Position numbers and translations under genes: made by a program. From Anabaena cylindrica UHCC 0172 (lineage in GTDB: Bacteria; Cyanobacteriota; Cyanobacteriia; Cyanobacteriales; Nostocaceae), in assembly GCF_034931625.1 (NCBI RefSeq), contig NZ_JAYGGY010000091.1, positions 20,647-52,646 on the forward strand: a stretch of DNA of 32,000 nt. Direction: 5' to 3'. Below, in pieces: positions 8,245-25,076 of the stretch. Below the pieces are notes generated by a model. It did no database searches. It was not told where the DNA came from and worked only from the letters and a program-made list of their open reading frames with translations. How positions within the stretch are numbered: position 1 is the first letter of the stretch; the number at the start of each line of letters is the position of its first letter.

Positions 8245-9195
8245 TTATTTTTGATTAAATTTTTTCAGAAAAATCCAGAAAGATTGAGCTTTTTTTCCAG
8301 GTAAAACAATTCCTAATATACTTTTTATAACTGCAATTAAAGTTATTTTCCTTCTATTCCAAGCGATAGCCGGCTGATATTTAAAAGTTTTTCCCAGTAA
8401 CTTAAGAGCTACTAAGCTTTTTTGCGGTTTTGGATAACCTTCTAGAGATTTTAGAGTCAGAAACATATATAAATTTGCTAAACTCTGGTTTTTTAAAGAC
8501 TGTAAATCTTGAGGTGCTTGACAAAAGGCTTTGTTGATAATTTTTAAGCCTGCTTCCTCCATTTTATTTATATTGGTGGACATTGAGCTATTTGATACTC
8601 TATATAAAATTTGTGGTGTAGGGACACAGACAAAAGGATAATCAGCAGCTAATCGCAGATACATATCCCAATCAGCGGAACGTTCTAAAGATTCATCAAA
8701 GCCTCCTAAATCTCTTAAAGCTTGAGTCAAGAATAAACCATTAGATCCATTTTCTAAAAAATTAGTGAATAATAGCTTTGGTAAAGCATAACCATTAACA
8801 GTAATATATAAACCTGAACGCAAAAATTGACTAGATTCATCAATATAATCAGTCCAACTATAAGCAACAGCAGCCGTAGAATTTTTAATTAAGGCATTTA
8901 ATTGAGCTTCTAGTTTATCAGGAGTCCATATATCATCGGCATCCATAAAAGAAATGTATTTTCTATTAGCAATTTTTAATCCACGATTTCGACTACTTGC
9001 TAGTCCAGCATTGGGATAAGAAAATATTTTTATTCTGATATCTTTGATCTGATCAATTATGTCTAAAGTTGTGTCTTTTGACCCATCATTGATCACAATG
9101 ATTTCAAAATCAGTAAATGTCTGTTTGAGAATAGATTGAATAGTTTCTTGAATTGTTTTTTCGCCATTATAAACTGGGATGACAACAGAAATCAT
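8245..9195 (-). CDS. Family 2 glycosyltransferase
   Basis: MISVVIPVYNGEKTI, VINDGSKDTT and the FMDADD (DxD) motif. ATG 9195 is preferred over the upstream GTG 9207 because GT2 proteins normally begin a few residues before the VVIPxYN strand. Confidence 0.85.
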   Translation of the reverse strand: MISVVIPVYNGEKTIQETIQSILKQTFTDFEIIVINDGSKDTTLDIIDQIKDIRIKIFSYPNAGLASSRNRGLKIANRKYISFMDADDIWTPDKLEAQLNALIKNSTAAVAYSWTDYIDESSQFLRSGLYITVNGYALPKLLFTNFLENGSNGLFLTQALRDLGGFDESLERSADWDMYLRLAADYPFVCVPTPQILYRVSNSSMSTNINKMEEAGLKIINKAFCQAPQDLQSLKNQSLANLYMFLTLKSLEGYPKPQKSLVALKLLGKTFKYQPAIAWNRRKITLIAVIKSILGIVLPGKKAQSFWIFLKKFNQK

Positions 9196-9656: not shown

Positions 9657-10007
9657 GCCTTTTGTGATGTCAATTTTGTAAATTAATCTGCCTTAAATGC
9701 GCTGGTATCTTGATTAAAGAATTTCGGCTAATACGTAATTATTCTTAGTAATATCGCACAAAATACTATTTGGCAATCAGTATAATATATATGTCTCTAT
9801 TGTCACTTTAGGGAAGTTCGTGATGAAATAAATCGTCACCGAAACAGTATTGATGTGTGAATTCCAACAAATGACTACAGATTACCTTAAAATCAAGCTA
9901 GTTACTTAGTAATTTTAGTTGCTCACTCAAAGCTTATTAGCTTTCAATTACTGCTATCAGACAGTCAAGTTGATATTCAAAAAATTTAAAATTTATGAAT
10001 TGGAAAT

Positions 10008-12894: not shown

Positions 12895-15654
12895 ATGGTT
12901 TCTATCCCTCCACTAAACCAGAGAGCAGGTATGTCTCAAGAAACCTTACTGCGTTGGATTACAAATCGCATCCGGCAGTCTTTAGAGTTGAAAGATATTA
13001 TCACAGCGACAACGGCGGAAGTTCAGTCTTTACTGGGAACTGACCGAGTAATGATTTACAAATTTCATGCTGATGGCAGTGGTCAGGTTATTGCTGAATC
13101 CATTTATGAAAATCGGATACCATCCTTATTGGGGTTGAATTTCCCTGCTGATGACATTCCGCCTCATGCGCGTGAAATGTTTATGAAGTCGCGGGTGCGT
13201 TCTGTCGTGAATGTTGATTCCAGGCAGATTGGTCAAAGTCCTCAGCGTGATATGGAAACAGGGGAAATTATTTCTGAAGAGATTCTTTACCGTTCAGTAG
13301 ATCCATGTCATGTGGAATATTTAACGGCTATGGGGGTTAAGTCTTCTGTAGTTGCGCCGATTATTCATGAAGATCAATTGTGGGGATTGTTAGTATCTCA
13401 TCATTCTGAAGCCCGTGATGTGGCAGAATATGAACTAGAAGCGATGCAGATGGTGGTAGAGCAGTTGTCTGTTGCGATCGCACAAAGTAATCTCCTCAAC
13501 CAGGCCCGTACCAAAGCCGAACGAGAAACCATTATCAACCGTATTGCTACCCTCCTCCATTCACTGCCAACAATTGTCTTACAGCCAGCTTTAGAAGCCA
13601 CAGTTGCTGCTTTTAATGGTGTTGGTGGCAGGTTATGCATCAGACACAATGCCTTTGACTTCCAACATAGTAGCTTTCAATCTTTAACAAAATGTTTAAT
13701 TCCTGGGAGCAATTGTCTTCGGCTTTATGTATGTGGACAGCAACCTGTTATTTCTGAACAAAATATATATCCACTGTTAGAGCAGTATAGCGTCTGGCAA
13801 GAACATTACAAATCTGGTCAATACGACATTTGGGCAATTTCTGATATCTACCAAAATTCTAATTTACGCATTGTCCAACTTGCTTTTAAACCTACAAAAA
13901 TCCGCAGCATTTTAATGATTCCCCTCCACTATCGACAAGAATTAGTGGGTTATTTAAGCATTTTTCGCAACGAAATAGACACAGAAACCCTTTGGGCTGG
14001 TAAATTTGACCCAGACAACAGACAACTTTATCCCCGTCTATCTTTTGACTTGTGGAGCGAATCTAAACAAGGACAAGCCCAAAAATGGACAAATGAAGAA
14101 ATTGAACTAGCTAGAGAAATTAGTAAACACTTTGCTTCTGCTATTCAGCAATATGAACTTTACCAACAGGTACAAAGTTTTAATGAAAATTTAGAAAAAC
14201 AAGTCCACAAGCGGACATTAGAAATGCAAAGGACTGCTGAACAACAACAAGCTGTATTTGGAGTTATTAACAAAATCCGCCAGTCTCTTGATACCGAGGC
14301 TATTTTTAAAACCACCACAAAGGAAGTTTGTCAATTAATCAAAGCAGATCGTGTTTCTGTTTATAAATTCAGTGCTGATTGGGGTGGGGCATTTGTGGGT
14401 GATTTTGAAGCTGCTAGTCCCAACTGGTTCAATGAATCTAAACTTGGTATTAATACAATTTGGAATGATACTTATTTACAAGACACTGAAGGAGGAAGAT
14501 ATCGTAATAATGAAACCTTTGCCGTAGATGATATCTACCAAATGGGATTTACACCCTGTCATGTCGATAATCTAGAACAGTTTCAAATTCATGCTTTTGT
14601 ATTAGCTCCTATTTTAATTAGAAAAAAACTTTGGGGTTTACTTTGTACTTATCAACATACAGGTCCGCGTCAATGGAAACCATCTGAAGTTAATTTTATC
14701 AGTCAGATCGCAGCGCAACTTGGAGTAGCAATTCAACAAGCTGAATTGTTGGTAAAAACTCAGCAACAAGCAGAACAACTCACACAAACTCTGCATGAAC
14801 TACAAGCTACTCAAACCCAACTTATTCAAACTGAGAAAATGTCTTCTTTAGGGCAACTTGTGGCAGGTGTAGCCCATGAAATTAATAATCCAGTTAACTT
14901 TATCTCTGGCAACCTCATTCATATCAATGAATATGCTGAAGACTTACTGAGTATGCTCAATCTCTATCAGCAAAAATGCCCAGAACCAAGCCAAGATATT
15001 TTAGAACTGGCAGAAGAATTAGATTTAGAATTTTTGATCAAAGATTTACCTAAAAGTTTATATTCCATGAAAATTGGAGTTGAGCGCATTCGGCAAATCG
15101 TCTTATCTTTGCGAAATTTCTCGCGACTTGATGAATCTGAAATGAAGGAAGTTAATATCCATGATGGCATTGATAGTACTTTGCTGATTTTGCAGCATCG
15201 GTTAAAAGCCAGACCTGAATTTCCTTGTATTAAAATAATTAAAGAATATAGTGATTTACCGTTAATAGAGTGTTATGCTGGGCAACTAAATCAAGTATTT
15301 ATGAATATTTTGAGTAATGCGATTGATGCCTTAGAAAGTTACAAAACATCCACCGCAGAAACTCCCACAATATGGAACATTACTATTTCTACTACTATTA
15401 AAGAAGTAAATAGCAATCTTAAAAATGTAGTGATTAGAATTAGTGACAATGGACCAGGAATGCCAGAAACTGTCAGGACAAGAATATTTGACCCATTTTT
15501 CACTACTAAGCCAGTAGGTAAAGGGACTGGCTTGGGGTTATCAATTAGCTATCAAATTGTGGTAGAAAAACACGGTGGTTTGTTGAAATGTAATTCGCAA
15601 CCAGATAGGGGTACAGAATTCTTGATTGAAATTCCAATTAAGCATTTGGTGTAA
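12895..15654 (+). CDS. Knotless-phytochrome (GAF-PHY) plus cyanobacteriochrome GAF sensor histidine kinase
   Basis: GAF1: FPADDIPPHAREMF and DPCHVEYLTAMGV (Cys138, tgt 13306-13308). PHY tongue motifs: LWAGKF, PRLSF, WSE. GAF3: IWNDTYLQDTEGGRY and TPCHVDNLEQFQ (Cys555, tgt 14557-14559). Kinase: H-box AHEINNP, N-box NILSNAIDAL, G1 DNGPGM, G2 GKGTGLGL. Confidence 0.88.
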   Translation: MVSIPPLNQRAGMSQETLLRWITNRIRQSLELKDIITATTAEVQSLLGTDRVMIYKFHADGSGQVIAESIYENRIPSLLGLNFPADDIPPHAREMFMKSRVRSVVNVDSRQIGQSPQRDMETGEIISEEILYRSVDPCHVEYLTAMGVKSSVVAPIIHEDQLWGLLVSHHSEARDVAEYELEAMQMVVEQLSVAIAQSNLLNQARTKAERETIINRIATLLHSLPTIVLQPALEATVAAFNGVGGRLCIRHNAFDFQHSSFQSLTKCLIPGSNCLRLYVCGQQPVISEQNIYPLLEQYSVWQEHYKSGQYDIWAISDIYQNSNLRIVQLAFKPTKIRSILMIPLHYRQELVGYLSIFRNEIDTETLWAGKFDPDNRQLYPRLSFDLWSESKQGQAQKWTNEEIELAREISKHFASAIQQYELYQQVQSFNENLEKQVHKRTLEMQRTAEQQQAVFGVINKIRQSLDTEAIFKTTTKEVCQLIKADRVSVYKFSADWGGAFVGDFEAASPNWFNESKLGINTIWNDTYLQDTEGGRYRNNETFAVDDIYQMGFTPCHVDNLEQFQIHAFVLAPILIRKKLWGLLCTYQHTGPRQWKPSEVNFISQIAAQLGVAIQQAELLVKTQQQAEQLTQTLHELQATQTQLIQTEKMSSLGQLVAGVAHEINNPVNFISGNLIHINEYAEDLLSMLNLYQQKCPEPSQDILELAEELDLEFLIKDLPKSLYSMKIGVERIRQIVLSLRNFSRLDESEMKEVNIHDGIDSTLLILQHRLKARPEFPCIKIIKEYSDLPLIECYAGQLNQVFMNILSNAIDALESYKTSTAETPTIWNITISTTIKEVNSNLKNVVIRISDNGPGMPETVRTRIFDPFFTTKPVGKGTGLGLSISYQIVVEKHGGLLKCNSQPDRGTEFLIEIPIKHLV

Positions 15655-15658
15655 GAAT

Positions 15659-15694
<36 letters not shown>

Positions 15695-15943: not shown

Positions 15944-17092
15944 CTAATTTCTCAGTTGTACAGGCATTGCTAAATAAGTCATTTTTAAACCACCTAAAGG
16001 CGTAAAAATTACTGGAGTTAAGCTTTGATTTAAGTGCATTTGAATTTCTGTAGATGGTAACTCTTTCAAGCCTTCCATTAAATATTTAACATTAAAGGCA
16101 ATATCTATATCTTCACCAGATATTTGTGCTGACATTGATTCTGTGCCACTACCCACATCTTGAGCTTCACAAGATAGGGTAATTTCTTGATTGGCGTTAT
16201 CAATGCTGACTTTGACAATATTATTTTTCTGGTCAGCTAACACAGCAATTCGCTCTAAGGTGCTGATAAATTGTCGCCGTTCTAATGTTACTTGTCGCTC
16301 AAATTGACGGGGTATTAGTTGGCGATAAGCGGGATATTGACCTTCTAAAGTGCGGCTAGTTAAACGTTGATTTTGCCAAGCAAATACAACTTGACCTTGA
16401 TCAAAATATAAGGCTACAGTTTCTTCTGATGAGCTATGAGCTAACATTCTTTGCAGTTCGCGTAATGCTCTTGCTGGTACTGTGACTTCTAGTTGATTGC
16501 TACCATCTAGAGGACGCTCATTAGTGGTTTCCAGCACAGCTAGGCGATGTCCGTCCGTAGCTGCAAATTCTAAAGTATCTTCTTTAACTGTTAGATGTAC
16601 GCCGGTGAGGACTTGTTTAGTTTCATCTGCGCTGGTAGCGAATAATGAACCGCGTAAGCCTTCAATGAGTGCAGCGGTGGTGAGTTGAATGGCTTCAGAA
16701 TTTTCAATGATTGGTAATTCGGGAAATTCTTCTGCTCCCATAGCGCGGACTTGATACTTGCCGTTTTTGGGTTTGAGGGTGACTATTAAGCCTTCTCCGG
16801 TAGAGTCTGCTGATTCGTCATCTAGGGTGATTTCGCCTTCTGGAAGACGAGAGGTGATATCTACAAGTAGTCTAGCAGGAAGTGCGATCGCTCCCCCTTC
16901 AATTACATCGGCACTAAAACTGCTACGGATACCCAAGCTGAGATCAAAGGCTGTTAAGCTAACTTGGTTAGTTTGAGCATCGGCTTGTAGCAGTATATTG
17001 GCAAGTATAGGATGAGTTGGCCTTGATGGTACTGCACGACTAACGAGTGAAAGATTGGTACTAAGATCGCTTTGAGCGCAAACTAATTTCAT
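15944..17092 (-). CDS. dnaN: DNA polymerase III subunit beta (sliding clamp)
   Basis: 382 aa, N-terminus MKLVCAQSDLSTNLSLVSRAVPSRPTHPILANILL, three-domain length, located next to the DnaA boxes and dnaA. Confidence 0.95.
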   Translation of the reverse strand: MKLVCAQSDLSTNLSLVSRAVPSRPTHPILANILLQADAQTNQVSLTAFDLSLGIRSSFSADVIEGGAIALPARLLVDITSRLPEGEITLDDESADSTGEGLIVTLKPKNGKYQVRAMGAEEFPELPIIENSEAIQLTTAALIEGLRGSLFATSADETKQVLTGVHLTVKEDTLEFAATDGHRLAVLETTNERPLDGSNQLEVTVPARALRELQRMLAHSSSEETVALYFDQGQVVFAWQNQRLTSRTLEGQYPAYRQLIPRQFERQVTLERRQFISTLERIAVLADQKNNIVKVSIDNANQEITLSCEAQDVGSGTESMSAQISGEDIDIAFNVKYLMEGLKELPSTEIQMHLNQSLTPVIFTPLGGLKMTYLAMPVQLRN

Positions 17093-17170
17093 ATAGCAGG
17101 GAACAGGGTTGAAAAAATAATCCTAACTTATTATCTTGCTCTAAGGACTAGGAATCTGGAGACTAGCATC

Positions 17171-17391
17171 TGTGGAAAACTTGTGGAAAACTAGGCTGGT
17201 TTTTCCACAGAGTAATTATACTCAAGAGAATTTACTGGAAAAATCTTGACGTTTTCCACAGTTTTTTCCACAAAAGGTAATTATTTCTCCACAATTGTAG
17301 TTAAATTTAACAATTTTTTATACTTAGCTTAATATTGCTGCTGAAATACTCAAATATCAAGACTATCAGTTTGGCTGTTGGTTGTGGAAAA
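17171..17391. other. Candidate oriC: cluster of cyanobacterial-type DnaA boxes (TTTTCCACA)
   Basis: Perfect 9-mers at 17171-17179, 17182-17190 and 17383-17391 (as tgtggaaaa), and at 17201-17209, 17252-17260 and 17264-17272 (as ttttccaca). One-mismatch box ttctccaca at 17285-17293. An AT-rich stretch at about 17294-17360 lies inside the cluster. Confidence 0.8.
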
Positions 17392-17446
17392 CATTGTTAA
17401 TTCGTAATTCTTAATTTTATCCTCTACCCTTCTGCTTCCTCTGCCT

Positions 17447-17561
17447 TATTTTTGAGAACGACTATTCATGTGAATGCGATCGCTGCGCTCGCCGTATCCC
17501 TTACGGAACCGTAGGAAAGACATCGCTCAATTGGCGTAAAGTTGGGATTAAAGTCCTGTCT
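17447..17561 (-). pseudogene. Displaced duplicate of the last 72 nt of dnaA (including the stop), with a 43-nt insertion
   Basis: 17447-17484 matches 18783-18820 at 37/38 positions. 17528-17561 matches 18821-18854 at 30/34. The extra 43 nt (17485-17527) are absent from dnaA. Confidence 0.8.
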
Positions 17562-17599
17562 CTTGGCGCTAAACCATAACTCCTTTGATTTGTAAATAG

Positions 17600-18559
17600 C
17601 TATTTTGTAAACCTATTTAATAAATCTGCACGAGATAAATTTAAAAGTAAGGGAGTAAATTCTTCCCTAGACATGGTAATTACTTGATCAATAATTTTCA
17701 CCAACTCAGGATCAATTTGTCCAAAACGTACTTGCAAAATACTTTCAACCATAGCGCGACGTTCTCTTTGTATCCCTCTATCAATTCCTATTAATTCTCC
17801 TTCTTGTCGCCCTTCTTGTCGTCCTTGTTGCCTTTGTTCTTCTTTGAGTTCTTCTAATAATTGTTGATACATTTCTGATAATTTCATAATCAACTCCTGA
17901 TCATCTTGATCAATATCTTTTTCTTTTTGTTGACGTGCTGATAACATCGCAATTAGGTCATGTACTAATTTTATAACATTCTCCAAGAATGGATTATTAT
18001 TAGCTAGTGCTTCTAATTCTTCCACTGCTTGTCTTTGTACCTTCCCTCTACCTAATACCCTCAAAAACAGTGTTTCTGGTGTACTTGGTAATTGATGTAT
18101 GACCACAACGCCAGTTTTTAACACTTTCCCCAGGAAATAAACTCCTTGACCCCATGTTTCTATATCTACAGTAGCATTACAACCTGCTAGAATGTCTTCT
18201 GATGCAGTCGGAGTGAATATCCATAAATGCGGTAGTTCGGTTTCATTAATTCGCGTATCGTTGCGTTTATATTTTCTTTCTGTTTCTGCATGGATGTCAA
18301 ATAGTTTACCCATGCAACTACGAATTTCACTTTTGCTGACTGCATTACGGAATGGTTCAAATATTACTGAGGCTGCATAAGTCCCCATTTTTCCTAACAG
18401 TCCTAATTCTTCTATATTTTCAGGAGATGTAGGAGTAAAAAATACGTCAATTTGTCTCACTTCTGAAGTGATATCCTTACTCATCTCTACTTGGCCGTAA
18501 GGTGTGAAGAGTTCTGTCAGATATTGTTTAGAAAATTGGTCATGGATAAAGCGTGTCAT
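17600..18559 (-). CDS. Rpn-family / PD-(D/E)XK-like putative recombination nuclease (DUF2887/DUF4351-type cyanobacterial protein)
   Basis: N-terminal HDQFSKQYLTEL...EVRQIDVFF pattern, central charged coiled coil (QRQQGRQEGRQEG) and a C-terminal DUF4351-like ILQVRFGQIDPELVKIIDQV...LLNLSRADLLNRF. gagga lies 4 nt upstream of the ATG. Confidence 0.6.
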   Translation of the reverse strand: MTRFIHDQFSKQYLTELFTPYGQVEMSKDITSEVRQIDVFFTPTSPENIEELGLLGKMGTYAASVIFEPFRNAVSKSEIRSCMGKLFDIHAETERKYKRNDTRINETELPHLWIFTPTASEDILAGCNATVDIETWGQGVYFLGKVLKTGVVVIHQLPSTPETLFLRVLGRGKVQRQAVEELEALANNNPFLENVIKLVHDLIAMLSARQQKEKDIDQDDQELIMKLSEMYQQLLEELKEEQRQQGRQEGRQEGELIGIDRGIQRERRAMVESILQVRFGQIDPELVKIIDQVITMSREEFTPLLLNLSRADLLNRFTK

Positions 18560-18781
18560 TTTTCCTCAATTTACAAAGATTGTGGCAAATTATAGCCATA
18601 ACATAAGGTGTCAATTCTAGAGTATCTTTTTTTGACCCTTAAATCCCCCCAATCTGAGGGACTTTGAAAATTCTTTTCCCCTCATAATCGAGAATTAGGT
18701 ATGGAGTGGAACTTTTGCAGGAAGTCTAAGAAATATCTCTAAAAGGGTAAGATTTTCAGATATCCTCATCCTCATAAACTC

Positions 18782-20161
18782 CTATTTTTGAGAACGACTA
18801 TTCATGTGGATGCGATCGCTCAATTGGCGTATAGTTTGAATTAAAGTCTTGTCTGTCTCTAGCAATTGGGTAATCTTCTCGCAAGAATACATCACCGTTG
18901 TATGGTCTTTACCACCAAACTCCTCACCAATTCTCGGTAAACTCAAGCCTGTATGTTGTCGCATTAAATACATTCCTATCTGCCTAGCCCAACTAATTTC
19001 TCGTTTGCGGGAATTACTTTTTAAGTCTTCAATGGAAATATCAAAAGTCTCCCCTATCACTTTTAAAATTACCTCTGGTGTCACTTCTAGCTTTTGATTA
19101 GAAGCTCCTAAAACTGGGGTAATATTTTCCACAGTCATAGCTAAACCCCAAATAGAAATATAAGCTAAAGCTCGAATTAAAGCCCCTTCCAACTCCCGAA
19201 TATTAGAAGTATAATTACAAGCAATATATTCAACTACATCTCTAGGTAAACGAATATTTTCATACTCAGCTTTTTTTTGTAAAATTGCCATTCTGGTTTC
19301 TAAATCAGGGGATTGAATATCTGCAATCAACCCCATCGAAAACCGTGAACACAGCCGTTCTTGCAAACTAGGAATCTGATTAGGAGGACGGTCAGAAGCA
19401 ATGACAACTTGTTTGCCAGACTCATGTAAAGTATTAAAAGTATGAAAAAACTCTTCTTGAGTATATTCCTTCCCTTCCAAAAACTGAATATCATCAACTA
19501 ACAAAACATCAGCAGCCCGATAATGCTCCCGAAAACTTTGCATACTATCATTACGAATAGCAGTAATTAAATCATTAGTAAACTGCTCAGTCGAAACATA
19601 AAATATTTTAGAATTAGGATAAATTTCCCAACGATAATTACCAATAGCTTGCATTAAATGAGTTTTACCTAAACCCACACCACCGCATAAAAATAAAGGA
19701 TTAAATTCCCTGCCTGGATATTCTGCCACTGCCAAAGAAGCCGCATGAGCCATCCGATTATTAGCACCAACCACAAACCTTGAAAAAACGTACTTGGGAT
19801 TTAATTCTGTAGTTTTTTGTTGATTTTTGGATACATTGGGGAAAATAGGATTAACTGCTGGCAATTCCCAAGCAACTTCTTGTTTACCCAATGGAGAAAC
19901 TTCATCACCTTGAGCAACAGTAATGTAAATTTCTACTGGATAACCCAAAATATCTTGCACAACATGAGCGATCGTATTGATGTAATATTTCTGGAGCCAA
20001 TTGCGAGCAAAAGGGTTAGGAGTCCGAATGACCAAGCAATTATTTTCTAATTGCTCTGCACTAGCAGTTTTAATCCAAGTTTCAAAGGTGGGACGGGATA
20101 GCTCTAGCTGTAAGCGCTCTAGCACCTGACTCCACAGACTGTCAATGGGAATTTCCATCAT
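18782..20161 (-). CDS. dnaA: Chromosomal replication initiator protein DnaA
   Basis: Walker [11 protein letters not shown], Walker B LLVDDIQF, and a C-terminal DNA-binding domain with [15 protein letters not shown]. 459 aa. Confidence 0.95.
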
Positions 20162-22424: not shown

Positions 22425-22865
22425 ATGGAACCATTAACTACTGGTGCTGTTGCTCTTGCAACTGTACTGGCTACCAAAGCACTAGAAAAAATTGGCGAAA
22501 ACATCGGAGATGGTTTATCAAACAAGACTAAGCAGTTTTTGGAATCGTTGAAAAAACAATCTTCTGCAACAGTCACCGCTATTGAAAAAGCACCACAACA
22601 ACCCCTCGATTATGGCAAGGCTGTACTGGAAATAGAAGCCGCAGCTAAAACAGACCCTCACGTTAATCAGTCTATCCAGGAATTAGCCCAGTTAACAGAA
22701 ACTAACCCACCGGCGAATTTAGCGGAAATTCTCAAAGAGATTCAAGCAGCTTTTGCAAACTCTCAACACCCCCAGGCGACAATTTTTAATCAAAACATCC
22801 AAAAAGCTATCAACGCCGCGCAAAATCAAAATATTGACCAAAGAGGAAGTACGTTTAATATTTGA
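22425..22865 (+). CDS. 146-aa helical protein; probably the detached N-terminal (effector/adaptor-like) module of the downstream NB-ARC protein
   Basis: ATG start, hydrophobic first helix MEPLTTGAVALATVLATKAL, a Q/N-rich tail, ending at TGA 22863-22865. It is in the same frame as 22980-25076 with no other stop between them. Confidence 0.55.
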   Translation: MEPLTTGAVALATVLATKALEKIGENIGDGLSNKTKQFLESLKKQSSATVTAIEKAPQQPLDYGKAVLEIEAAAKTDPHVNQSIQELAQLTETNPPANLAEILKEIQAAFANSQHPQATIFNQNIQKAINAAQNQNIDQRGSTFNI

Positions 22866-22979
22866 CAGCACTCGTCTGACGGGGAACGGACAAAGTTAAC
22901 CCCCACTAAACATATACCCTATCGTGGTTCTAGGCATTTTGTTGGACGAGAAACAGAACTGACAACTATCCATGAAGAT

Positions 22980-25076
22980 TTGCGACGGGGAAATTATGTA
23001 GCGATAACTGGAATGGGTGGTTTGGGTAAAACGGAATTAGCCACCCAATATGCAACACAATATCAAGATGAGTATGGGGGCATAATTTGGTTTAATGCTA
23101 GAGAAAGCAGACTCGCAGCGGAAGTATTGGAGTTTTTTAGCTTACAGTTGGGTTTAGAAATTCCCCAAGAACGAGGAGGACAACTGCTAAATTTACAAGA
23201 ACAGGTGGCTTGGTGTTGGTTGCAATATCCACAGACAGATTTACCTGTTTTAATTGTTGTTGATGATTTAACTGATTTAGCACATCTGCGAGAAATTGTC
23301 CCCAGTCTGCCACGGTTTCGGGTGTTGATAACAACTCGGCTGCAAAATTTAGATCCTAATTTTATTCAACAACTACTTTTAGATGTTCTCTCACCAGAAA
23401 AAGCATTAGAACTTTTACAAAAGCAACTGGGGGAAAAAGATAAACGAGTTTTCAAAGAACCAGAAGCTGTAACTGCAATATGTAAATCTTTAGAATATTT
23501 GCCTTTGGGGATGATTTTAGTTGGTGGTTATTTATTAAATGACCCTGGACTGTCTCTAACTGAGATGTTGGCACGGTTGCAAAAAGGTAAGTTAGCAGAA
23601 GCAGCTTTACAAGAACGGGAAACTATCAATAAAACTCAACTGGGAGTTAAAGCCGCATTTAATTTAACTTGGGAAACACTAGATAATCAAGCTCAACAAC
23701 TGGGCGCATTTTTAAGTTTATTTTCTCCTCAGTTGATTGTTTGGGATTTGGTAGTTGAGATAGTTAAGTTTGAAGTAGAAAATGAAGAGAAACAACTAAT
23801 TTGGACAGACGAAGAATTAAAAGCAGCAAAATTGCAACTTTATCAACGCAACTTATTACAACTGGCAGAATCACCAGAAGAAGCTTATAAAATACATAAT
23901 TTGGTGAGGTGGTTTTTGCAAGAACAGTTAGCCGAATACAGAGAAATGCAGCCAGTTTTAGAAAGAACTTTTATTAATCCGATGATAGCCCTTGCTCAAG
24001 CACTTTCTCAGTCACCCACCTCTGAAGATATTGGAAATTTTCAGTTTATTGTTTCTCATTGGGAAGCTTTGGGACAACGTTTAATAGATAATATAAAGGA
24101 AAAAACAGAAATAGAGGCCAATTTACCTGTATCCATCCTTACAGATGAGTTTATCTGGGTTTTTGTGGGGCTGGGCATATTTTACGAAAGAAAGGCATTA
24201 TATCAATTAGCAGAACCTTGGCGGAAGGGATGCGTAAAAGTTTACAAGGCGTTGTTTACAGGCAACCATCCTGATATTGCTGCAAGTTTGAACAATTTAG
24301 CATATCTATACGATAGCCAAGGGCGGTATGGTGAAGCCAAACCTCTCTATATTGATGCTTTGCGAATGTATAAGCGACTATTTACAGGCGACCATGCTGA
24401 TGTTGCTTCTAGTTTGAGCAATTTAGGCGTACTTTACCATAAGCAAGGGAAGTACAGTGAAGCCGAATCTCTCTACATTAAAGCTTTAGAGATGAGAAAG
24501 CGGCTATTTACAGGTGACTATCCTGATATTGCTAATAGCTTGAATAATTTAGCCTTACTCTACAAAAGTCAAGGGAAGTACATTGAAGCCAAACTTCTCT
24601 ACCTTGAGGCTTTAGAGATGAGAAAGCGGCTATTTACAGGCGACCATCCTGATGTTGCACAAAGCTTGAACAATTTAGCAGTATTCTACCATGAACAAAT
24701 GTGGTACAGTACAGCCGAACCTCTATACATTAAAGCTTTAGAGATGAGAAAGCGGCTATTTATAGGCGACCATCCTGATGTTGCTAATAGCTTGAATAAT
24801 TTAGCTGACCTCCACAAAAGTCAAGAGAATTACAGTGAAGCCAAACTTCTCTTCCTTGATGCTTTAGTTATGTTGGAACGGGTGTTAGGAGTTAATCATC
24901 CCCATACAATAACCGTTCGAGAAAATTTACAACTTTTGCAACAGCAACTCACACCTCGTTCTGCTCCTAAAACTCTGTTACGTGATCCATTAGCTATATT
25001 AGCTTTACCGTTCTATCGTTTGTGGTTATTGATTAAACGTATTGTGATCTTTTGCTTGCGTTTGTTCCGACATTAA
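22980..25076 (+). CDS. NB-ARC (STAND) NTPase with TPR repeats, NLR-like; homology extends upstream to 22866, so the gene is interrupted or read through
   Basis: Walker A GMGGLGKT (23010-23033), Walker B LIVVDDL, RVLITTR and the LPLG motif. About 5.5 kinesin-light-chain-type TPR units and a hydrophobic/basic C-tail. The conserved lead-in RHFVGRETEL lies before the first available start (TTG 22980). Confidence 0.8.
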   Translation: MRRGNYVAITGMGGLGKTELATQYATQYQDEYGGIIWFNARESRLAAEVLEFFSLQLGLEIPQERGGQLLNLQEQVAWCWLQYPQTDLPVLIVVDDLTDLAHLREIVPSLPRFRVLITTRLQNLDPNFIQQLLLDVLSPEKALELLQKQLGEKDKRVFKEPEAVTAICKSLEYLPLGMILVGGYLLNDPGLSLTEMLARLQKGKLAEAALQERETINKTQLGVKAAFNLTWETLDNQAQQLGAFLSLFSPQLIVWDLVVEIVKFEVENEEKQLIWTDEELKAAKLQLYQRNLLQLAESPEEAYKIHNLVRWFLQEQLAEYREMQPVLERTFINPMIALAQALSQSPTSEDIGNFQFIVSHWEALGQRLIDNIKEKTEIEANLPVSILTDEFIWVFVGLGIFYERKALYQLAEPWRKGCVKVYKALFTGNHPDIAASLNNLAYLYDSQGRYGEAKPLYIDALRMYKRLFTGDHADVASSLSNLGVLYHKQGKYSEAESLYIKALEMRKRLFTGDYPDIANSLNNLALLYKSQGKYIEAKLLYLEALEMRKRLFTGDHPDVAQSLNNLAVFYHEQMWYSTAEPLYIKALEMRKRLFIGDHPDVANSLNNLADLHKSQENYSEAKLLFLDALVMLERVLGVNHPHTITVRENLQLLQQQLTPRSAPKTLLRDPLAILALPFYRLWLLIKRIVIFCLRLFRH
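24243..24872 (+). repeat. Five tandem 126-bp (42-aa) TPR units with near-identical scaffold segments
   Basis: Units start at 24243, 24369, 24495, 24621 and 24747. agaaagcggctatttacaggcgaccatcctgatgttgc recurs almost unchanged in units 3-5, while the central part of each unit differs. Confidence 0.9.

Follow-up and report, generated by a model that had tools for sequence, protein, structure and literature searches.

Background

The closest described counterparts of the gene considered here are the rpn genes of bacteria (YhgA-like, PF04754/COG5464; RpnA to RpnE in Escherichia coli), whose horizontal transfer as single genes has been treated in the literature (PMC10400941, PMC5350276). Published surveys report that they are gained and lost singly, with variable rather than defined ends and with neither inverted ends nor target duplications, and that they are probably non-autonomous (PMC10400941). 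The full-length Rpn nuclease is toxic, while its DUF4351-type C-terminal domain is separately translated as an antitoxin, RpnS, in which four-residue repeats that differ between strains start 8-20 residues past the internal start, and at least one Rpn protects from phage (PMC10400941). Here we analyse a stretch of 32,000 nucleotides (nt) from Anabaena cylindrica UHCC 0172 (contig NZ_JAYGGY010000091.1, positions 20,647 to 52,646; hereafter the window), in which a gene of 319 amino acids (aa), best read as a divergent Rpn-like gene, lies between dnaA and the replication origin (oriC), an unusual location, and is flanked by two copies of the dnaA 3' end. We argue that this horizontally acquired gene may have been joined to the dnaA 3' end by homology-anchored recombination that duplicated its anchor.

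Integrase-driven islands and prophages enter the 3' ends of tRNA, tmRNA or protein genes, bringing a replacement end with them. The locus described here shares with such islands the direct repeats of a target 3' end, the restoration of the gene by the nearest copy, a likeness that stops at the gene end, and the existence of empty sites, but it differs in that no tyrosine or serine recombinase was found in the ten neighbouring open reading frames (ORFs) scanned, in that the cargo is a single gene, in that the repeats are long (72-194 nt, counting a second locus, L130, described below), and in that no conserved att core is common to the window and L130. Insertion-duplication (a single crossover of the Campbell type) and homology-facilitated illegitimate recombination are known from naturally transformable bacteria, mainly through laboratory constructs and selection experiments. 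With insertion-duplication our locus has in common a single anchor, duplicated at both sides, the lack of a dedicated recombinase and the possibility of loss via the repeats, whereas the evidence from the window is comparative throughout. Unlike insertion sequences and transposons, it has no shared ends past its own ORF and, in those ten ORFs, no transposase that we could find, and its duplications measure 72-194 nt instead of being short and of fixed length. One feature alone recalls a homing endonuclease gene, namely the recurrence of an insertion point past TAG GAGTTTA in two cassette variants.

Structure of the locus

Relatives were compared through a scan for DnaA, one genome per species, which gave 80 Nostocales dnaA loci, and through public sequencing runs (assembled contigs, denoted X), which add closer relatives. 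Two of the scanned loci are referred to throughout, that of Anabaena sp. UHCC 0451 (L001) and that of a Nostocales metagenome-assembled genome (MAG; L002). All coordinates are those of the window, in which dnaA, the 319-aa gene and dnaN lie on the minus strand. In the order of transcription the interval reads dnaA, a spacer of 222 nt, the 319-aa ORF, 38 nt, a second dnaA end, 54 nt, the DnaA boxes and dnaN. We call the proximal, working dnaA end A and the distal copy A'. The features are as follows.

18782..20161, minus strand: dnaA, ORF; product 91% identical to DnaA of L001
18782..18854, minus strand: proximal copy A, the working dnaA 3' end, with stop codon TAG at 18782-18784
18775-18781, minus strand: GAGTTTA (dnaA strand), native dnaA-downstream sequence; the empty-site runs X23-X25 read TAG GAGTTT
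18560..18781, minus strand: spacer from the dnaA stop to the gene, of which 18616-18774 is missing in some relatives
17600..18559, minus strand: 319-aa Rpn-like gene, predicted to encode a PD-(D/E)XK-like domain at the N-terminus, then a long helix and a helical bundle of the DUF4351/RpnS type
17600..17887, minus strand: candidate internal frame for a short RpnS-like antitoxin (M225-K319), with ATG at 17885-17887 and AGGAG 6 nt upstream
17795..17830, minus strand: four-residue repeat region QGRQ EGRQ EGEL, beginning 19 residues past M225
17562..17599, minus strand: junction of 38 nt from the gene stop to A', unique in the window and kept in X1-X4 with one change
17446..17561, minus strand: A', the distal duplicate of the 72-nt dnaA end, with stop codon TAA (17446-17448); a non-coding relic
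17485..17527, no strand: 43-nt insert within A', beside a GCGATCGC palindrome (HIP1-type), with an ATCGCT direct repeat at its edges
17392..17445, minus strand: spacer from A' to the first DnaA box, beginning GGCAGAGG (dnaA orientation) and resembling the empty site of L002
17171..17391, no strand: oriC DnaA-box cluster, with six exact copies of TTTTCCACA and one near-match
15944..17092, minus strand: dnaN (beta clamp), ORF; 93% identity to dnaN of L001 and L002

A preliminary description of the window had placed a second copy of the final 72 nt of dnaA (18783-18854) at 17447-17561, and a repeat finder and pairwise alignment agree. The first block (17447-17484 against 18783-18820) is identical at 37 of 38 nt (97%) and the second (17522-17561 against 18815-18854) at 36 of 40 nt (90%), or at 30 of 34 when the 6 nt shared by both blocks (ATCGCT, the first 6 nt of the second) are set aside. 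BLAST E-values within the 1-kb flanks are 4e-14 and 2e-11 for the two blocks, and by eye the likeness probably continues for 8-11 nt more (AGAGACAG) past a 3-nt indel. The duplicated end is real and beyond chance. Its stop codon was described as TAG, which is correct for the proximal copy, while the distal copy ends in TAA. The statements that the copies enclose a single gene and that dnaA would otherwise abut oriC and dnaN also proved sound, since we find no further ORF longer than 62 aa between A and A', and the six exact boxes lie at 17171-17391.

No other sequence in the window resembles the A/A' repeat, the spacer or the 43-nt insert, and this insert, which shows no unusual fold, has no second copy in the window or in any fetched locus; runs X2-X4 carry a different insert, of approximately 63 nt, at the same point of A'. 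The DnaA-box region can be aligned with those of L001, L002 and runs X3 and X23, while the spacer at 17392-17445 cannot be aligned with runs X3 or X23. A scan of 17000-19000 against Rfam returned no RNA family, nor was any terminator-like site found; promoter-like sites do not rise above background.

In accordance with the preliminary description, no integrase or transposase domain occurs in the ten neighbouring ORFs scanned, approximately 10 kb to either side. The copies of the cassette that we compared share just the ORF and 5-80 nt upstream of it, their homology ending 0-3 nt past the stop codon, and no conserved cassette ends were found among them. The locus had been likened to integrative elements that carry a replacement 3' end for their target. 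That comparison holds for the replacement end itself (A completes the working dnaA), for the displaced relic (A' runs into a spacer before the DnaA boxes that resembles the empty site of L002, TAA GGCAGA...), for the empty sites and for recurrence within the family, but not for site-specific machinery or conserved ends. Precise excision by recombination between A and A' is possible in principle, but is probably rare, the insert having cut the homology to 38 + 34 nt.

Occupied and empty sites in relatives

In many Nostocales the DnaA boxes and dnaN lie within approximately 50-600 nt of dnaA, and the 319-aa gene is missing from most of the 80 dnaA loci. The empty sites that had been called for were found in two relatives. 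The first is L002 (DnaA 90% identical), which reads dnaA-TAA-GGCAGAAGGAGG, DnaA boxes, dnaN, with 400 nt from dnaA to dnaN; the second is an isolate that we call organism G (X23/X24, dnaA approximately 7% diverged), in which one contig reads TAG GAGTTT, approximately 115 nt, and the first DnaA box. Because the site is empty in these relatives, we conclude that the gene was inserted and is not native here.

The site is occupied in L001 (DnaA 91% identical), where an orthologue stands at the same place in the order dnaA-TAG-GAGTTTA, gene, oriC, and the cassette is also present in runs X1-X4, which are 4-10% diverged from the window. In X3 a single contig of 2201 nt spans dnaN, oriC, A', the gene and A; X2 and X4 contain both A' blocks in separate contigs, and X1 covers only the left A' block, from 17517. 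The window and X2-X4 agree in the junction between gene and A' (GCGCCA followed by AGAGACAG) and in having an insert at the palindrome. The tail past A' differs, the window continuing from its TAA with GGCAGAGG (TAA GGCAGA, like the empty L002) and X2-X4 continuing from a TAG with GAGTTAATGCCC. No second copy of the host's own dnaA end was seen in the other dnaA loci of the 80-locus scan.

The spacer upstream of the gene is variable. X1 joins 18615 directly to 18775, X3 and X4 skip 18689-18774 and have 10 other letters instead, and X18 has 56 nt where the window has 214. Since approximately 159 nt (18616-18774) are missing from some relatives, the spacer holds a recent, strain-specific insertion. 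We also considered whether TAG GAGTTTA was brought by the cassette, and discarded this, as the reading of the empty-site runs X23-X25 makes it native to the clade.

Divergence of the gene and its flanks

The gene has diverged less than its surroundings. Synonymous divergence (Nei-Gojobori) of the gene is 0.29 between the window and L001, 0.34 between the window and L081/L082, and 0.126 between L001 and L081, while for the same pairs dnaA, dnaN, htrA and def give 0.46-0.80. Tallied from the listed contig pieces, the window and X1-X4 differ at 88 of 2254 positions in the cassette (3.9%), at 345 of 4100 in dnaA (8.4%) and at 283 of 3905 in dnaN (7.2%). Judged from these sequence differences, the cassette is younger than the sequence around it, its divergence being about half that of dnaA and dnaN, and because of this difference we consider that the gene has been exchanged horizontally. 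Since the split from X3, approximately 3 changes have accumulated in A and approximately 5-6, plus indels, in A', which is consistent with a constrained coding end beside a free-running relic.

The wider distribution of the gene is scattered. A near-identical gene occurs in L081 (Sphaerospermopsis) and L082 in a variable stretch between a GUN4 gene and def, approximately 2 kb away on the opposite side of dnaA, while Dolichospermum homologues (73% identical) sit at unrelated loci among toxin-antitoxin genes, and none of the relatives at 49 metagenome loci adjoins dnaA. The stretch beyond def varies between relatives: in L081:1-5835 it contains a KAP NTPase gene, the GUN4 gene, a Y1 (IS200-type) transposase and the Rpn-like gene, and in the window (22425-25076) it contains a 146-aa ORF without a domain match and a 698-aa NB-ARC/TPR (STAND-type) protein.

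The encoded protein and its family

The 319-aa protein gave no significant match in Pfam, NCBIfam or PADLOC (DUF4351 at E=1.3) and no match at all to DUF2887, so that its earlier labelling as DUF2887/DUF4351-type is not directly borne out. It holds in kind, the family to which the protein belongs being Rpn-like and 9 of 40 diverse members matching PF14261 (DUF4351), the best at 1.5e-20. Weak matches to FliH and FapA were discarded, as they are explained by the charged coiled helix. The family is large, with 1608 representatives at E<=0.001 in a library clustered at 50% identity. Neither the 319-aa protein nor any of the 40 members matched PF04754 or TIGR01784 at E<=0.01, and for that reason we do not file the N-terminal domain under PF04754. 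A search of PDB sequences with the family profile gave no matches, viral contigs scanned with the family alignment contained no relatives, and Foldseek against viral structures returned weak nuclease-like matches only.

In a profile-profile comparison (hhalign) against an alignment of E. coli RpnA relatives, residues 216-303 align to the RpnA C-terminus with 76% probability (E=2.2e-5), conserved E-x-L-M included. The profile-profile run aligned no N-terminal region, and hhalign of the N-terminal domain against RpnA recovered only an HD..FK motif, not significantly. The AlphaFold model (predicted local distance difference test 91) consists of an N-terminal alpha/beta domain, a helix of 60 residues (218-279) and three short helices forming a small bundle. 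Among PDB structures, the top Foldseek matches of the N-terminal domain are EndoMS/NucS, SduA, Cap4, Can2 and restriction enzymes, all of the PD-(D/E)XK kind and all weak (E 0.02-0.3). Conservation in the family reaches 90% or more at D7, E33, D38, E68 and K85, a pattern that resembles D11, D63, E82, Q84 and R94 of RpnA (PMC5350276) and may be equivalent to it.

The second half of the gene contains a candidate internal start, M225 (an in-frame ATG at 17887 of the window), which follows an AGGAG, is conserved within the family and coincides in the alignment with the E-x-L-M motif conserved among RpnA relatives; its distance to the repeats, 19 residues, is within the 8-20 reported for Rpn (PMC10400941). 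The number of four-residue (QEGR-like) units varies, the window having approximately 3, L001 more than 25, P0002 approximately 1 and P0003 approximately 10, and a single 12-nt repeat unit separates the window from runs X2 and X3. The extreme of this variation lies at L001:9190-9470, where more than 25 copies of a 12-nt GRQE unit are broken by an assembly gap (Ns). With a ratio of nonsynonymous to synonymous divergence of 0.12-0.24, the gene is under purifying selection.

Compared with the described rpn genes, the family thus shares an RpnS/DUF4351 C-terminus with a variable four-residue repeat on a long helix, a candidate internal methionine with a Shine-Dalgarno sequence before the repeats, a modelled and probably PD-(D/E)XK-like N-terminal fold with a conserved D...D...E...K/R pattern, and single-gene horizontal movement without inverted ends, tandem arrays included. 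It differs in that its N-terminal domain is more compact and goes unrecognised by PF04754/TIGR01784, in that E-P-F-R replaces the E-x-Q of RpnA, and in that it is concentrated in cyanobacteria. It differs further in that the genes of the window and L130 have beside them a long copy of the 3' end of the gene upstream, whereas rpn genes have no reported target-site duplications (PMC10400941). The gene is best read as a divergent Rpn (YhgA-like) gene, in which a predicted PD-(D/E)XK-type nuclease domain is fused to an RpnS/DUF4351-type C-terminal domain. By analogy the gene most likely works as a toxin with an intragenic antitoxin (RpnL/RpnS-like), and its presumed role would be in defence. The analysis also defines a large cyanobacterial Rpn-like family whose predicted nuclease domain is missed by current domain libraries. 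In two places we observed family members in tandem on the same strand (L111:127-1980 and L126:1039-3037), as in rpn tandem arrays.

Duplicated host gene ends elsewhere in the family

Besides the window, 46 family loci had enough flanking sequence to be searched for direct repeats, 30 nt or longer, that bracket the gene, and 7 of them have such repeats, compared with 5 of 313 ordinary ORFs of 250-500 aa in dnaA loci, which we offer as a rough control. A clear duplicate of a host gene end is present at one of the 46, L130, where the last 194 nt of a gene for a 975-aa family-2 glycosyltransferase, stop codon included, are repeated at 95% identity. The family member at L130 (306 aa) is 35% identical to the window protein. 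The duplicate begins 36 nt past it, and its far end directly adjoins the start of the next gene (GGAAAATAA-ATG, with the ribosome-binding site). At both the window and L130 the likeness between the two copies ends at the host stop codon. E. coli rpnA has no flanking repeat. There are thus two independent insertions with readable junctions, that of the window being beside an essential gene and the replication origin.

Mode of insertion

The reading that we prefer, with a probability of about one half, is that a horizontally acquired Rpn-like gene was joined to the dnaA 3' end by homology-anchored recombination of the insertion-duplication type. The incoming DNA would have contained the gene together with a dnaA end, and recombination inside the recipient's conserved dnaA 3' end would have taken place in a mode of addition (insertion-duplication, Campbell-like or one-sided) and not of replacement. 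Such an addition would leave the anchor twice, the proximal copy finishing the essential dnaA and the distal copy decaying as a relic before oriC. The junction between gene and A' would move with the cassette and the tail past A' would be the recipient's own; A and A' could from then on serve as portable homology arms, permitting exchange among related genomes and, in principle, loss. No integrase or transposase would be needed. Three parts of this account are presumptive: the recombination mode, the form of the intermediate (circular, or linear with overlapping arms in a polyploid cell) and any involvement of RecA.

A shared junction with differing tails, as seen between the window and X2-X4, would follow from joining driven by homology that took place independently, or repeatedly, in different hosts. 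Similarly, a likeness that ends at the stop codon is expected if the copies recombined within conserved coding sequence and the intergenic DNA of the hosts differed. Homology-anchored addition is the best fit because it accommodates the parallel at L130, the stop-codon boundary, the shared junction with an unshared tail, the native GAGTTTA and the younger cassette. The scar suggests that such genes spread by ordinary recombination and not by a transposase, and it provides a testable model of homology-anchored addition in which the nuclease may or may not assist.

Several observations weigh against this reading. Thirty-nine of the 46 other family loci have no flanking repeat, so that the preliminary expectation of family copies flanked by duplicated host gene ends is borne out at L130 and not at these 39, and for two of the seven positives (L128 and L132) we ruled out target duplicates, the repeats being pairs that resemble miniature inverted-repeat transposable elements (MITEs). 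L001 is filled at the same point and lacks a second dnaA end. The lower divergence of the gene could be due in part to gene-within-gene constraint. A sliding-window scan of dnaA gave no clear recombination breakpoint and was uninformative, as was the pattern of synonymous and nonsynonymous differences between A and A'. No excised circle or empty junction was seen in assembled contigs, which drop rare forms. Finally, in organism G the last 30-39 nt of dnaA with TAG GAGTTTA (window 18775-18816) are present at 5-6 times the neighbouring depth, and short contigs link one dnaA-end copy to the next via CAA/TACAA, which indicates a tandem array of the dnaA end, with a period of approximately 45 nt, in front of oriC and without a cassette; because of this array, a dnaA end can evidently duplicate without any cassette. 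The tandem unit of organism G, like the insert in A' of the window, is bordered by the GCGATCGC palindrome, at which it begins.

An unlikely alternative mechanism is that the repeat is a long target-site duplication formed at insertion, a break near the dnaA stop having been followed by template switching (microhomology-mediated and replication-based) that copied in the foreign gene and thereafter approximately 80-90 nt of the target a second time, with the Rpn nuclease perhaps responsible for the break. The cassette does lie precisely between the two copies, in X2-X4 both copies run past the stop codon with GAGTT(T/A)A, the geometry of L130 is alike, and primer-template switching has been proposed for the RecA-independent recombination stimulated by RpnA (PMC5350276). 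However, a random staggered break does not predict copies that end at the stop codon, as they do in the window and L130, and in the window the tail of A' (TAA GGCAGA) is mostly different from that of A (TAG GAGTTT), whereas the adjacent 38 nt contain one difference. Nor does such a duplication by itself explain why the cassette has half the divergence of its flanks.

We attach a similarly small chance to the possibility that a local tandem duplication of the dnaA end came first and that the gene was inserted later at a preferred point past TAG GAGTTTA, the repeat being incidental. The array of organism G, the presence in L001 of the gene at the same point past GAGTTTA with a single dnaA end, and the mention of tandem duplications around rpn genes (PMC10400941) are all compatible with this sequence of events. 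It would, however, require the cassette to have landed right at the boundary of two copies of 72-83 nt, while the unit in organism G contains only approximately 31 nt of the coding end and has other boundaries, and the 194-nt duplicate of a host gene end at L130 is left unexplained.

A wider conjecture, which we regard as quite doubtful, is that Rpn-like genes are mobile genes free of integrase and transposase, using a host 3' end as a portable homology arm and their own nuclease to break empty alleles; were it true, the long host-gene-end duplications of the window, X2-X4 and L130 would be traces of an active mechanism that the genes themselves promote. Even less probable, in our view, is a self-mobilising, site-specific element whose nuclease recognises the 3' ends of dnaA (or of conserved genes), cuts empty alleles and drives the copying of its own gene, along with a replacement gene end, into them, as in homing. 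Two cassette variants with different upstream flanks (that of the window, and that of L001/L082) are indeed found at the same point past TAG GAGTTTA, two independent insertions of rpnC between panC and panD are on record (PMC5350276), L130 has the same geometry, and the model of the protein has a nuclease-like fold with conserved acidic residues. Against this, close homologues occupy many unrelated sites without duplications, the near-identical gene of L081 and L082 adjoins def instead, and RpnA has little sequence specificity, rpn genes being judged non-autonomous (PMC5350276, PMC10400941). That the nuclease moves its own gene, a mobility role proposed in the preliminary description, is conjectural, and the literature does not favour it.

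It is highly improbable that the gene is an old, vertically inherited resident of the dnaA-oriC interval, lost several times and flanked by a chance duplication, for although the gene tree and host tree have the same shape (four taxa) and the window and X1-X4 agree in structure, the four flanking core genes show 2-4 times its synonymous divergence, in a ratio that is not constant, Nostocales outgroups have dnaA beside the DnaA boxes and no gene, the sister taxa L001 and L002 differ in its presence, and L081 and L082 have it elsewhere.

Remodelling of the origin region

The origin region is a recurrent insertion site, and the dnaA-oriC junction of Nostocales tolerates repeated remodelling. In a Nostoc MAG (L037:8365-8498) and a Rivularia MAG (L080, approximately 8349-8460), a MITE-like element of approximately 130-165 nt (CTAG followed by TACCGCACGGCGTAAATAAAC ... 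GACTTCCGCGCAGCAGTACTAG) is located inside the last codons of dnaA, where it provides another C-terminus (...TARRK*) and stop codon; in L037 the original end, now displaced, stands behind the element. The element also occurs just past the Rpn-like gene in L001 (approximately 9688-9850), and an 11-nt match after the L001 cassette, which we had considered as native sequence, was rejected as such since it lies inside this MITE. The same Nostoc MAG has approximately 4 kb between the DnaA boxes and dnaN (L037:8735-12860), containing a DUF4365 protein and ORFs of 229, 490 and 138 aa without a Pfam match, and several other Nostoc loci have 2-6 kb between dnaA and dnaN. Tandem repeats of heptamers (GGAGTCA, TTTTGAC) occur in intergenic DNA around dnaN and oriC in the window (15648-15682), in L001 (9753-9842) and in L002 (3170-3205).

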